A stretch of 53,164 nucleotides of DNA from Candidatus Sungbacteria bacterium RIFCSPLOWO2_01_FULL_47_32 (GTDB taxonomy: Bacteria; Patescibacteriota; Minisyncoccia; Sungbacterales; GWA2-42-14). The first letter of the stretch is position 1. The number at the start of each line of letters is the position of its first letter. Positions 14,210-49,770 of this stretch are shown here, in pieces. Made by a program: the position numbers and the translations under genes. The notes beneath the pieces are model-generated. The model searched no databases, was not told the DNA's origin, and was given only the letters and a program-made list of their open reading frames with translations. The stretch covers positions 1 to 53,164 of the forward strand of contig MHQP01000014.1 in NCBI GenBank assembly GCA_001820685.1, in the 5' to 3' direction.

Positions 14210-15268
14210 ATGTTCAATCCTGATTATAAACTCACTGACAAAATCGTCAATCTGCTTACCGCCATAGCAGAAGCAAAAGCGGTTATTAGTCGCGCTAAAC
14301 TTCTTCCAAAACAGGAGTTGCGGTTAAGACGCCAAGCATTAATCAGAATGACTCATGCCTCCACAAAAATTGAGGGCAATATTTTAAATATTCATCAGGT
14401 GGAAGCAATTGTACAGCATAAGAAAATAGATGCTCCGGCTAGAGATATATATGAGGTAGAAAATTATCTTAAAGCACTGCGCTATATCGGTAAGATCGTA
14501 GAGGGCAAACAAACTATTACGGAAAAGGAGGTCTTAAGAATTCATAAGCTTGTTACTGATAAAACTCTACCAGAAGAACAATCAGGGCATTATCGTCAAG
14601 GACCGGTTTATGTCGTTCGCCGGAGACTGGGTATGCCCGATGAGATTATCTACACGGCGGCTGATACCAAAGAAGTACAATCTCTTATGCACGCTTTAGT
14701 TGAATGGATACAAAAAACGGAAAAAGAAGATATTCATCCCATCATCGTTGCAGGCGTAGCCCATCAACAATTTGCCGCAATTCACCCATTTAGCGATGGA
14801 AATGGCCGTACTGCGCGGGCTCTGGCTACGCTTATTCTATACCAGCGCGATTATGATTTCCGCCGCCTTTTTGCACTCGAGGATTATTACAATAAAGATC
14901 GTCCTCAATATTACAAATACATCAACGTCGGAAAGAATTATAAAGAACGAAGAACCGATTTTACTCCGTGGCTTGAGTACTTCGTAAAAGGATTTAAAGA
15001 AGAAATCGATAACGTGAAATCGAAAGTAATTTCTCTCGCCGGAAGAAAGGTCGGCAAAGAAATTGATTCGCAGATTTTTCTCGACAAGGAACAGTTGAAA
15101 ATAATCGAATTTCTCGAACAAATGAGGAGGATTACGGTGCAAGACGCGTTGGATATTCTTGAATGCCCAAGAAGAACTGCGCAATTGCATCTTCAAAAGT
15201 TGAAAAAAATAAAGATGATTCGGCAGGTCGGCAAAGGACCTTCGTCGGCCTATACACTTGTGAAATAG
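14210..15268 (+). CDS. Fic family protein with C-terminal winged HTH
   Basis: HPFSDGNGRTAR Fic motif; STKIEGN inhibitory-helix motif; C-terminal RRTAQLHLQKL..GKGPSSAY. Confidence 0.93.
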   Translation: MFNPDYKLTDKIVNLLTAIAEAKAVISRAKLLPKQELRLRRQALIRMTHASTKIEGNILNIHQVEAIVQHKKIDAPARDIYEVENYLKALRYIGKIVEGKQTITEKEVLRIHKLVTDKTLPEEQSGHYRQGPVYVVRRRLGMPDEIIYTAADTKEVQSLMHALVEWIQKTEKEDIHPIIVAGVAHQQFAAIHPFSDGNGRTARALATLILYQRDYDFRRLFALEDYYNKDRPQYYKYINVGKNYKERRTDFTPWLEYFVKGFKEEIDNVKSKVISLAGRKVGKEIDSQIFLDKEQLKIIEFLEQMRRITVQDALDILECPRRTAQLHLQKLKKIKMIRQVGKGPSSAYTLVK

Positions 15269-15277
15269 TTATATCGA

Positions 15278-16000
15278 TTAAAGTTTTAAGAGCGGCGCTT
15301 CCCAACCGAAACACGTCTCTTTGTCTTTTAACATTTTGAATGCTTTTGTGCAGGAGGCATTAAGTTTTGCATATTCTTTAAGCACCTGAACAGTTTCTTC
15401 AATCAGACCGCCGACGGTACCGTCGGAATCATCAACACCGCTTCGGCAAAGTTTGTCATCAAGCCTCAAGAGCAAATCAATGAGTAATTTTGCGGTTTGT
15501 TCGCTCACCGGCAATTCTGAAATGATTTTTGACAAACGATTGCATCCTTCCGAAAGAGAACTCTGGTATGAAAACCAAATTCGGGAAGGTCCATTATATG
15601 GCTTAATATATTTCATGGCGCCAGTGATTGATTTTTTTACTGCGGATAACCCGGCGTTACTTAATTCTTCCAACCGGCCACTGCAAGTGGCTTGAGAAAC
15701 GAGCTGCTTATCCTTCTCACTCAATTTTTTACCATCCATCACCGCATGAATTGCTACCGCCACCATATGTTTACAAAGCGTATCATTCTGACCAAGATAG
15801 CATTCGCAATGACCGTAGTCATAGCGGCGCGCCTCCACTGAAACTCGATACGGTTTTGTGCCCAGCACTATAGCTGAATAGTTGCCGATACCCTCTTCGA
15901 TCTGTGTTACTTTTCCATACTCGTATAAGCCAACTGCCTTTTCAAAAGTCAGCCTGTCGGTTGCAAATTTAATTTTATCCAAATCATATGAAGGCTTCAT
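15278..16000 (-). CDS. SWIM zinc-finger protein
   Basis: CECYLGQNDTLCKH (CxC..CxH). Start set at MKPSY because the longer ORF would overlap a tRNA exon. Confidence 0.75.
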   Translation of the reverse strand: MKPSYDLDKIKFATDRLTFEKAVGLYEYGKVTQIEEGIGNYSAIVLGTKPYRVSVEARRYDYGHCECYLGQNDTLCKHMVAVAIHAVMDGKKLSEKDKQLVSQATCSGRLEELSNAGLSAVKKSITGAMKYIKPYNGPSRIWFSYQSSLSEGCNRLSKIISELPVSEQTAKLLIDLLLRLDDKLCRSGVDDSDGTVGGLIEETVQVLKEYAKLNASCTKAFKMLKDKETCFGWEAPLLKL

Positions 16001-16124
16001 AAAATTTACTTGGGTCGAATCCAAGAAACGAGCGGCGCTAATGTTCGAACGCATCCTAGTCGCCTTAGCGACGTAGGCGTCTCGATCTCCTGAATTAGCA
16101 TGTGCTGACTGCGGGACTTGGATT

Positions 16125-16312
16125 TTCACCCCGTTAGATACAGCAATATAATATTTAATATACTTCCAAGCAGCGCTGCGGGACCTGGATTCGAACCAAG
16201 ATACCCGCCTCCAGAGGGCGGTGTCCTACCGTTAGACGATCCCGCAGCGCTGCCAACAAGACAGAATCTCTGAAATAATTTCTCTACATTTAATTTTAAG
16301 CATCTAACGGGG
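16125..16312. mobile_element. 188-bp IR-bounded insertion in the T-loop of the outer tRNA-Gln, carrying a tRNA-Gln
   Basis: 11-bp inverted repeat CCCCGTTAGAT (16129-16139) / ATCTAACGGGG (16302-16312). Mobility is inferred. Confidence 0.65.
16176..16246 (-). tRNA. Inner, intact tRNA-Gln(CTG)
   Basis: TGCGGGATCGTCTAACGGTAGGACACCGCCCTCTGGAGGCGGGTATCTTGGTTCGAATCCAGGTCCCGCAG forms a full cloverleaf; CCA is not encoded. Confidence 0.95.
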
Positions 16313-16513
16313 CGAACCAAGATACCATGCTCCAGAGGCATGTGTCCTACCATTAGACGATCCCGCAATACGTAAACTATGTTAGAGGTTCACCAACGTC
16401 TTTCGTATATGAAATACCGTAAGGCGAAACCGCCTTTGGCTCACAATAATTTTAATAAACAAAAAGAATCTTTAACCTCTAACGTGGTAAAAGCGCCTGT
16501 TACGGCGCCTTTT

Positions 16514-16542
16514 ATAGTAGCATGAAAAAGATTGTTTTTCAA
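16514..16542 (-). promoter_or_regulatory. Promoter upstream of the tRNA-Gln locus
   Basis: TTGAAA-N17-TACTAT with an extended -10 TG. Confidence 0.5.
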
Positions 16543-16544
16543 TA

Positions 16545-17438
16545 TTAAACTCTCAAGTACCGGTGCACCGCGATAAAGCTTGAAAAAACTCCGAGAACAA
16601 CTCCAACTCCGATAAGAATTCCACCGAACTGAAGCAGATGTTGCTGATAATACACATGCATATCAATAGATGGGATCACGACAAGGAGCTTGGGAGAAAC
16701 AACCCAGAGAACCGGATAGAAAAGTATAGCGGCAAGGCCCCCGGACGCAATTCCGTGCATAACACCTTCAAACAAGAACGGCCCGCGGATGAACCATGAG
16801 GAGGCCCCGACAAGGCGCATGATATTTATTTCTTCCCTGGCTGACCAGATAGCAATGCGAATTGTGTTGAACGCAACAAGCATGGCAATGGCCGCAAGAA
16901 CAAATATGACGGCAAGTCCGGAATTCCTCACGCCCGCCAAAATTCCGGAGAGGCGGTCGATGACAACCTGATTTTCGTAATAGTTGATCTTATCAACGAT
17001 AGGATATTTTTTATTCTGAAGATAATCGGCGACATCCTGGAGTTTTGTCGGGTCTTTTGCTTTGATATTCAACGTTGCTTCAAGCGGATTTTGGTCAAGC
17101 TCTCCCAACGCATTGATGATGGTTGCGTCATTTTTATGACGGTCTTTGAATTCCGCAAGTACTGCGTCCTGTGAAATATAAGAAACTTCTTTTACGTCGC
17201 TCAATGCCTCAAGACTGTTTTTGATATTCATAATGTCGGACTCGCTCGAATTCGGATAAAAATACACGGCGATGTCTATTTTCCCTTCAAGGTCTCCGAG
17301 AACAACCTGTGCCGCAACCCCCATCAAAATGAGCCCACCAATGACAAACAAGGTCAAGGTCATGACTAAAATGGTGGCGGTTGAAAGCCAGCCGTTCCTC
17401 ACGAACGATACCCAGCTGTTCTTGATAATGCGCTTCAA
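16545..17438 (-). CDS. ftsX: Cell division permease FtsX
   Basis: RNGWLS, NPLEA, NTIRIAI, EINIMRLVGASSWFIRGPFLFEG; directly follows ftsE. Confidence 0.92.
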   Translation of the reverse strand: MKRIIKNSWVSFVRNGWLSTATILVMTLTLFVIGGLILMGVAAQVVLGDLEGKIDIAVYFYPNSSESDIMNIKNSLEALSDVKEVSYISQDAVLAEFKDRHKNDATIINALGELDQNPLEATLNIKAKDPTKLQDVADYLQNKKYPIVDKINYYENQVVIDRLSGILAGVRNSGLAVIFVLAAIAMLVAFNTIRIAIWSAREEINIMRLVGASSWFIRGPFLFEGVMHGIASGGLAAILFYPVLWVVSPKLLVVIPSIDMHVYYQQHLLQFGGILIGVGVVLGVFSSFIAVHRYLRV

Positions 17439-49700: not shown

Positions 49701-49770
49701 GCTTAGCGCGGTCTAACCTCGCTTAGCGAGGTGACCGCGTTGCTCTGTGCTTCGCTCATATTCCAGACGG

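Follow-up and report, generated by a model that had tools for sequence, protein, structure and literature searches.

Why does a complete tRNA gene lie inside the T-loop of another tRNA gene with the same anticodon, and which of the two would the cell be using? The question is raised by a 53,164-nt contig (MHQP01000014.1, here C14, analysed over its full length and called the window) of Candidatus Sungbacteria bacterium RIFCSPLOWO2_01_FULL_47_32 (GCA_001820685.1), a groundwater bacterium with a genome of 1.15 Mb in 48 contigs that is 98.5% complete. On the minus strand of the window, positions 16313-16367 and 16109-16124 together form a complete tRNA-Gln(CUG) that is interrupted after T-loop G57 by 188 nt (16125-16312), and the interruption encloses a second complete tRNA-Gln(CUG) at 16176-16246. 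The host genome (G000) was surveyed together with 40 relatives (41 genomes of the host order; relatives are labelled G001 and so on), and further loci and contigs carry L-numbers. With a probability of about two in three, we read the insert as a mobile, non-autonomous and sequence-specifically recognised cassette that replaces tRNA genes, the inner gene being the one that works and the outer gene a recently disrupted relic.

The interrupted tRNA-Gln gene and its neighbourhood

Read along the tRNA strand, the nest consists of the following parts:

16313-16367 (-): 5' part (55 nt) of the outer, resident tRNA-Gln(CUG), from the acceptor 5' strand to T-loop G57, ending GGTTCG
16302-16312 (-): 5' arm of the cassette's terminal inverted repeat, CCCCGTTAGAT, 11 nt in exact pairing with the 3' arm
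16255-16301 (-): left spacer of the cassette, in which only the last bases (..CTTGTT) are conserved between genomes
16247-16254 (-): leader strand GGCAGCGC, pairing with the discriminator and trailer of the inner tRNA
16176-16246 (-): inner complete tRNA-Gln(CUG), CCA not encoded (ARAGORN; Rfam RF00005, 57 bits)
16169-16175 (-): trailer strand CGCTGCT of the leader/trailer stem, pairing with the leader
16140-16168 (-): right spacer, from the comparison of cassettes
16129-16139 (-): 3' arm of the terminal inverted repeat, ATCTAACGGGG, exact partner of CCCCGTTAGAT
16125-16128 (-): TGAA, the conserved last four bases of the cassette (TGAA in 4/5 complete cassettes, TAAA in 1/5)
16109-16124 (-): 3' part (16 nt, A58 to G73) of the outer tRNA-Gln(CUG), AATCCAAGTCCCGCAG, from the comparison of the joined halves

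An initial annotation, made from the letters of the window alone, had proposed that removal of 16125-16312 restores a 71-nt tRNA-Gln, and ARAGORN indeed accepts the outer halves, joined in a script, as a tRNA-Gln(ctg) of that length with anticodon stem CATGC/GCATG; the inner copy had likewise been described correctly as complete. Taken alone, the outer 5' part gives merely a partial RF00005 match (16326-16358, 20.7 bits). The two copies differ at 8 of 71 positions (16, 27-29, 39-41 and 62). From the compensatory difference in the anticodon stem the annotation had concluded that both look structurally selected, which is a weak argument, as the copies belong to two different tRNA-Gln lineages (see below). 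The inner copy is the sole complete tRNA-Gln found in the host assembly and is presumed to be the working gene. Only 34 tRNA genes were found in this genome, and Asn, Trp and Gln(UUG) are lacking among them, so that several tRNA genes are probably unassembled.

The structural details of the annotation also stood. Its 11-bp inverted repeat is exact and extends through TTCG/TGAA with one G-U pair, this pairing between TGAA and the outer T-loop existing in G000 only. The prolonged acceptor stem of the inner tRNA, with a paired discriminator, comprises 8 pairs, one of them G-U, between the leader and G73 plus CGCTGCT (16176-16169). When the 259-nt nest RNA (minus strand, 16109-16367) is folded, it proves far stabler than shuffled sequences (-109.3 kcal/mol versus -75.9 +/- 4.6 in 200 shuffles; z -7.24, 0 shuffles as good), and at the junction the T stem is followed by one 3-nt bulge (AAU) on the 3' strand and then a continuous 15-bp helix. 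Within the 188-nt insert there is no open reading frame and no gene except the tRNA. Rfam reports only tRNA in the window at the gathering score and nothing else credible between 15960 and 16500 at E<=5; one sRNA match over the cassette is at chance level (22 bits versus a gathering score of 52).

Could the nest be an assembly artefact, in which two strain alleles of tRNA-Gln were merged by the assembler? The initial annotation had raised this case itself. Contigs from 4 runs of 4 studies cover 15950-16204 and 16342-16550 with 0 differences, and the first of these intervals (outer 3' part, arm, spacer and inner 3' half) is contiguous in 2/4 runs and present as two overlapping pieces in the other two. 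For merging one may point to 16265-16306, which has no cover in the listed contigs of the 4 runs, an absence that proves nothing either way, to the tRNA words common to many organisms of the samples, and to the 7-22 loose ends per run at 16313 that read as an uninterrupted gene; many apparent joints in the DNA-contig output are tRNA-Gln genes of other organisms. Against it stand the intervals without differences, a separate metagenome contig (L092) with the entire nest in identical form, which may share its source with G000, the recurrence of this architecture in four other genomes and, for L028, in two more independent contigs, and a closed one-contig genome that also contains partial tRNA self-copies. 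Merging of alleles is, on this evidence, extremely improbable.

The outer gene has a conserved upstream neighbour:

16545-17438 (-): ftsX (Pfam FtsX_ECD and FtsX), conserved upstream neighbour of the outer tRNA

In tblastn searches ftsX was found beside tRNA-Gln(CTG) in G001, G004, G005, G007, G021, G038 and L026, and the locus is nested in G005, G038, L026 and G007 and un-nested in G004, G001 and G021. Conserved ftsX marks the locus as orthologous in nested and un-nested relatives alike. The uninterrupted tRNA-Gln(CTG) of G004 equals the joined outer halves of G000 at 71/71 positions, and directly downstream of the tRNA the two genomes share ~25 similar bases (CATGCTAA.TCAGG.GA) before they diverge. 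Since the match lies at the same ftsX-linked locus, G004 preserves the empty site, the uninterrupted ortholog that the initial annotation had suggested looking for among relatives. The body of the inner tRNA shares 96% identity with tRNA-Gln(TTG) of a relative and 93% with tRNA-Gln(CTG) of family f5. Based on these comparisons, the outer copy is the resident ortholog and the inner copy belongs to a different tRNA-Gln lineage. The recent insertion, one of the two readings offered in the annotation, is thus supported by the G004 site and by the ends of the insert, which are of a repeat-family type (see below).

Two features of the surroundings are recorded here for completeness. The outer tRNA and the gene after it are separated by ~100 nt (16005-16108, minus strand) that begin with CATGCTAATTCAGGAGA and end in a terminator-like hairpin (16025-16009); the motif also lies directly 3' of tRNA-Gln(CTG) in G001, G004, G007, G009 and G013, and the region, which has no Rfam match, may be a small RNA or leader. 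A gene for a Fic/DOC-family protein lies on the opposite strand at 14210-15268, ~0.9 kb from the nest.

Recurrence of the nest at the same T-loop site and at other tRNA genes

A scan for the right-junction pattern in one genome per species returned 6 loci, two of which repeat the G005 and G038 places, and a metagenome scan returned 5 more, one equal to G000 and two to L028; viral contigs gave 0 matches to the pattern. The tally is 9 distinct loci at which the right end of the cassette lies directly 5' of an AATCC-type outer 3' part, in lineages labelled as belonging to the candidate phyla radiation (CPR; Parcubacteria group, Paceibacterota, Sungiibacteriota and two Saccharibacteria), and inner and outer tRNA have the same orientation at 9/9 loci. 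Five are complete nests with inserts of 188 (G000), 181 (G038), 187 (L024), 188 (L026) and 190 nt (L028), and G005 holds an interior of 2.7 kb at the same site. In G007, L088 and L089 the 5' remnant is missing and what is left is a complete tRNA with right arm and 3' remnant, a form that a deletion between the directly repeated 5' parts would yield. The tRNAs of the nests carry U1-A72 and G73, which we take to be the bacterial tRNA-Gln pattern.

The right junction is always GGGG-T(G/A)AA followed by AATCC (AGTCC in G007, AATCT in G005), so that the further loci, too, end in TGAA or TAAA. At the left junction GG-CCCG-CCCC is found in G005, G038, L024 and L028, GG-CACG-CCCC at one locus and GG-TTCG-CCCC in G000 only. 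The T-loop of the joined outer gene would start with CCCG or CACG, without U54 and U55, in the four other complete nests and in G005, and the perfect outer T-loop of G000 is therefore the exception.

Within the cassette, the 5' arm CCCCGTTAGAT recurs in G038, G005, L026 and L028, and with one mismatch in L024. The terminal arms are nearly invariant and their mismatches are uncompensated (A-C in L024, G/A in G005). The leader/trailer stem is kept in 5/5 complete Gln cassettes via compensatory changes (GGCAGCG/CGCTGC(T), GGCAACG/CGTTGCC, CCATCG/CGATGG and GGTAGAG/CCCTACC, the last with one mismatch). This pattern suggests that an RNA or hairpin structure around the inner tRNA is under selection, and that the termini are recognised sequence-specifically.

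Some loci are layered. G038 has two successive 3' remnants with a right arm before each, and L089 has three layers from two cassette families. Innermost in L089 is a complete tRNA that has a leader/trailer stem to itself; its cassette is of the other family, with a right end (...CGGCGGGG) directly before AATCC. In the middle layer a 3' remnant still has behind it the trailer CGTTGCC, as is typical for CCCCGTTAGAT cassettes, and then the right arm and TAAA, and the outermost layer is again a 3' remnant. Such stacking points to repeated hits at the same place. In the 3' remnant of G005, 2 acceptor mismatches were seen by eye.

Nesting is not restricted to tRNA-Gln. In the host genome 13 of the 34 tRNA genes have same-strand partial self-copies <=500 nt away, with breakpoints mostly in the D, anticodon and T loops (for example C1:11480-11820, Asp; C4:4650-5050, Phe; C13:19640-19860, Thr; C17:6200-6440, Pro; C37:16380-16950, Glu and Ser). 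The cleanest case is the tRNA-Asp nest, where both outer parts match the inner gene at 100% identity, positions 1-37 lying 64 nt upstream of it and 37-77 lying 62 nt downstream; the arms of this nest are its own (CCCCG...CGGGG), its leader/trailer stem has 9 bp, 12 nt of the 3' trailer are duplicated, and the inner leader is the exact reverse complement of the duplicated trailer. Three nested 5' copies occur at the tRNA-Lys locus, and the outer Lys, Thr and Pro copies were judged defective by eye. In a closed 923-kb genome of the same order (G026), 21 of 70 tRNAs were flagged, of which 11 lie in one dense tRNA array and are probably cross-hits between neighbouring genes, and 10 lie outside it.

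Several side observations concern these tRNA genes. At C18:90060-90400 of the host (L043), the gene reported by ARAGORN as 'tRNA-Stop(tta)' has the anticodon loop CTTTTAA and should in all likelihood be read as tRNA-Lys(UUU). Three copies are nested here, with this gene innermost and with 5' parts of 20 and 40 nt in length upstream of it; the gene is bounded by CCCCGACACTCAA and TTGAGTGTCGGGG, and the outer anticodon loop holds two extra small hairpins. The array of G026 (C1:439800-442400) contains at least 11 tRNA genes in 2.6 kb, many of the 70 tRNAs of that genome are present in two copies, and the array may be mobile. Upstream of tRNA-Gly(ccc) (window 49701-49745) and of tRNA-Gly(gcc) (C4:6227-6271) lies a hairpin, GCGGTCAcc...ggtTAGACCGC, with arms that copy the acceptor 5' strand and its complement, and tRNA-Gly(gcc) and tRNA-Val(cac) have a downstream repeat in common (AATAGTGGACTTTT..CTCGCGC..CCGTTTCTAT).

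Cassette ends, junctions and candidate enzymes

The terminal 10-mer of the cassette, CCCCGTTAGA, occurs 19 times in the host genome versus 2 times for a backwards control, and 0-101 times per genome in the 40 relatives versus 0-3 for controls (G038 101, G021 87, G012 80, G005 76). Most copies form intergenic inverted pairs ~90-130 nt apart, and thirteen such modules align as one family of ~110 nt with ends CCCCGTTAGAAGYYC and core GCGAAGCCGCCTTACGGCTTA; of 12 modules searched against Rfam, none had a match at E<=1. Flanking direct repeats that agree in all 4 nt (TTTA, TTGA, TTCA, TGAA) are found at 8 of 23 pairs versus 0/23 in an offset control, which is the mark of transposition, and all 8 of these pairs enclose no tRNA. 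The tRNA cassettes share the ends of this family but not visibly its insertion chemistry. One member adjoins the nest:

16377-16487 (no strand assigned): decayed copy of the ~110-nt family, CCACGTTAGAGG ... CCTCTAACATAG with core GGCGGTTTCGCC, directly upstream of the outer tRNA (sequence, fold and by-eye family comparison)

The family itself ranges from 0 to about 50 copies per genome across the 41 genomes (in the host for example C1:34131-34239 and C15:14141-14251). At host C19:7263-7309 the family is reduced to a minimal hairpin of 47 nt, with the direct repeats TTCA, inside a stop-to-stop frame of 329 codons on the opposite strand. At host C33:42480-42700, two stretches that read as tRNA 3' ends, CCA included, stand alone (AATCCTAGGCTGGTGCCA and a degenerate version of it); each is directly followed by a family arm, and they look like further tRNA remnants. 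A 2.77-kb candidate for an autonomous element (G003:C12) resolved into a normal 110-nt module and an unrelated match to the motif, the latter within what looks by eye like a helicase gene, and the long-spaced repeat pairs of the host enclose ordinary genes, one of them recA (by eye).

Alternatively, the insert could be the scar of a larger site-specific integrase element, with a large serine (or tyrosine) recombinase and a spare tRNA-Gln, which would have integrated in the T-loop and from which an internal deletion left the attP half-sites as an inverted repeat. The half-sites of serine integrase attP are inverted repeats. Furthermore, the 2.7 kb inside the arms of G005, at the same site and with the same repeat, encode a methylase fragment, an HTH protein and a large serine recombinase (Resolvase, Recombinase and Zn_ribbon_recom), bounded by ~30-bp imperfect repeats; recombinase genes of this kind lie <=1.5 kb from a tRNA gene at 20 of 30 loci in the order; and all three of the host adjoin tRNA-Ala genes at contig ends (C18:90400-91125, C24:1-1300, C30:1-1750). 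At the C18 site the complete tRNA-Ala gene is preceded, at a distance of 58 nt, by a 24-nt fragment of its 5' side that breaks off in the anticodon loop. The G005 block, however, is 78% identical over 2.4 kb to an element of G003 that carries tRNA-Gln(TTG) and has no such arms, and is best read as a separate, different element that would have landed inside a cassette. The repeat motif directly bounds a recombinase element at only 1/28 loci outside G000, namely G005, and no crossover sequence of at least 2 bp is common to the junctions. The near-constant 181-190 nt of five cassettes is not what random deletion would give. Large serine recombinases are present in 22 of the 41 genomes regardless of repeat copy number, and G012 and G021, with 80-87 copies, have no match. 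We consider an integrase scar unlikely.

For the cassette as a mobile unit, none of the enzymes looked at so far is a convincing mobiliser. Large serine recombinases lack a match in 2/5 other nest genomes and have their 3 matches elsewhere in the genome, the G005 block recurs in the repeat-less G003 element, and copy number is not tracked. Of the Y1 (IS200/RAYT-like) transposases, 4 occur in the host, 3 of them without a repeat within ~1-1.5 kb and the one on C47 with a module ~1.1 kb off, and there is no correlation with repeat copy number across the 41 genomes. DDE_Tnp_1 gave 0 matches in the host, other transposase families not having been searched. One reverse transcriptase gene is present in G000. 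Regarding the junctions, a 4-bp target duplication, a 2-bp serine crossover, a tyrosine-recombinase core and an IS200/IS605-type insertion 3' of a tetranucleotide were tried as models and none fits all loci; the two junctions have no di- or oligonucleotide in common that would suit the T-loop sequence. To the left of CCCC, four bases of the cassette-like pattern YYYG are found in 6/7 cases across Gln, Lys, Thr, Pro and Asp.

Function of the two copies and relation to known systems

How could such a cassette persist once it has broken a tRNA gene? In the reading that we favour, a 188-bp non-coding inverted-repeat cassette with a tRNA-Gln(CUG) would have entered the resident gene between G57 and A58, in sense orientation, its target being the loop of a tRNA gene of the very identity that it carries. 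Insertion would break the resident gene and the tRNA of the cassette would take over. Because the only promoter-like site on the tRNA strand within 15800-16800 (16542-16514) is upstream of the outer gene, with none inside the cassette, the inner tRNA would be transcribed by read-through from the upstream region of the resident gene, and the cassette thus probably also exploits the transcription signals of that gene. In the long transcript, the 8-bp leader/trailer stem and the terminal stem of 11-15 bp may fold the inner tRNA out, which could then be matured by the usual end-processing and CCA addition, the outer halves serving only as leader and trailer. Imprecise loss would remove the sole tRNA-Gln(CUG), and the cassette would therefore be self-stabilising. 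The relic in G000 would be young, or touched by conversion, and repeated hits on each new inner copy would produce the layered loci.

Several observations weigh against this reading. The conserved cassette length and the covarying leader/trailer stem show more constraint than a dead insertion would require. Searches for serine recombinases, Y1 and DDE_Tnp_1 brought up no mobilising enzyme (other transposase families were not searched). Target-site duplications are seen in 0/4 tRNA-carrying cassettes of the host (Gln, Thr, Pro, Arg), and the two junctions have no core in common (GG-YYCG-CCCC on the left, GGGG-TRAA-AATCC on the right); insertion would therefore differ both from that of the 110-nt relatives and from classical integrase recombination. 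The frequency of nests is known from genomes of this order only. Moreover, the perfect outer T-loop (TTCG), found in G000 alone, means that the outer gene could still be used. Finally, inner and outer 5' parts are identical in L024 and G005 (51/51), and inner and outer copies of L026 and L028 share lineage-specific anticodon stems, while a foreign-looking inner gene is present in G000 and G038 only. To explain such identity, gene conversion or local copying has to be assumed, which is hard to square with an incoming foreign tRNA.

The same identity would be expected if the nests arose by local, enzyme-independent duplication, through template switching at palindromes or through a self-primed retro-copy into a hairpin element already present in the T-loop. 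The tRNA-Asp nest, with its identical halves, duplicated trailer and reverse-complementary leader, and the reverse transcriptase gene of the host also point in this direction. Yet the inner gene of G000 is not a copy of the outer one, given the 8/71 differences, and the same junctions and cassette ends are found in genomes of different families. Local duplication seems a very unlikely explanation on balance.

The intact outer halves of G000 raise the further possibility that the interruption is dealt with in RNA. The initial annotation had named splicing as the alternative to a recent insertion, and this found no support: neither EndA (PF01974) nor RtcB (PF01139) has a match in the 98.5%-complete host genome, although control genomes matched, and the fold has a single bulge and no bulge-helix-bulge (two 3-nt bulges with a 4-bp helix between). 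Archaeal-type splicing was rejected as a mechanism on these grounds. Rfam detects no group I intron core, and the insertion is in the T-loop and not in the anticodon loop. More broadly, the cassette could be an RNA-level intervening sequence that is cut at the base of the terminal stem, the outer halves being ligated or used as a nicked or split tRNA, so that each transcript yields two tRNA-Gln(CUG). Equality of the G000 outer halves with a working ortholog would fit this, as would a terminal stem (11 bp plus TTCG/TGAA) that stacks on the T stem with the AAU bulge, the stability of the fold, the conserved cassette length and inner stem, and the position of breakpoints in loops in other nests. 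But the joined exons are canonical in G000 and not in G038, L024, L026, L028 or G005, where U54 and U55 are lost; the 5' half is gone at three loci, the outer copies of other tRNAs have decayed, and the uncompensated mismatches of the terminal repeat (L024, G005) speak against covariation. Six RNA runs contain 0.04 of the sampled words, presumably conserved tRNA words, and none of them holds the organism. Excision at the RNA level is unlikely, and its broad form is improbable in our estimate. A specific version, in which ordinary tRNA- or duplex-processing nucleases remove the T-loop cassette and the outer halves are religated by an unidentified ligase or persist as a non-covalent split tRNA, so that one transcript gives two tRNA-Gln(CUG), is highly doubtful. 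If true, the tRNA-within-tRNA unit would be the first case of a functional bacterial tRNA with an interrupted T-loop, and in any case the locus is a concrete place for asking whether bacteria process T-loop-interrupted tRNA.

Mobile DNA in tRNA genes has long been known, but it rebuilds the gene from a short overlap. Here a cassette of <200 bp, whose only gene is a spare tRNA, would break the resident gene mid-loop and substitute for it, and this substitution would make the cassette hard to lose. If nesting is general, as 13/34 loci in G000 and the 10 outside the array in G026 suggest, tRNA genes in this CPR order would turn over by repeated self-nesting, fragments would systematically confound the annotation of tRNA genes in these genomes, horizontal replacement of tRNA bodies would become easy, and a loop-specific insertion activity would await discovery. 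Full-text searches of one literature collection, on tRNA introns, insertions and nesting in CPR/Patescibacteria, brought up no description of one tRNA gene inside another or of comparable cassettes in CPR bacteria, and a further search on miniature inverted repeats in Parcubacteria gave nothing related.

Among known systems, RNase III excises intervening sequences from bacterial rRNA genes, and the cassette resembles these in being a stem-bounded insertion in a structural RNA that is removable without religation; unlike in the rRNA case, excision is not seen here and no tRNA counterpart was found in the literature search. Archaeal tRNA introns at non-canonical positions and split tRNAs also exist. 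With these the nest has in common the interruption in the T-loop and complementary sequences beside the exon ends that draw the halves together, and it differs in the bacterial-type U1-A72/G73 pattern of its tRNAs, in lacking the bulge-helix-bulge, EndA and RtcB and in an intervening sequence that holds a whole tRNA.

Integrases prefer anticodon- and T-loop sublocations in tRNA genes, and breakpoints of the nests likewise fall in anticodon and T loops. The tycheposons of Prochlorococcus are integrative elements that target tRNA genes (bioRxiv 10.1101/2020.12.28.424599). Such elements share with the cassette a landing site in a tRNA, the partial tRNA copies left behind and successive integrations that push older remnants outward; they bring their own integrase and only that part of a tRNA which rebuilds the gene, with one kind of partial repeat at both junctions. 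The cassette, on the other hand, breaks the gene mid-loop with both 5' and 3' remnants and no shared core, measures 181-190 bp, has no recombinase inside and carries a complete spare tRNA as its only gene. In form the cassette resembles miniature inverted-repeat transposable elements (MITEs) and REPIN-like palindromes: it is small and non-coding, its terminal inverted repeats measure 11-16 bp, and it has its terminal 10-mer in common with a multi-copy family of ~110 nt with 4-nt target duplications. The cassette differs from MITEs in that no autonomous partner or transposase was found among the families searched (DDE_Tnp_1, Y1_Tnp and serine recombinases; other transposase families were not searched), in the absence of a target duplication, in its cargo, a functional RNA gene, and in its use, in several genomes, of one precise site in one tRNA gene instead of random targets.

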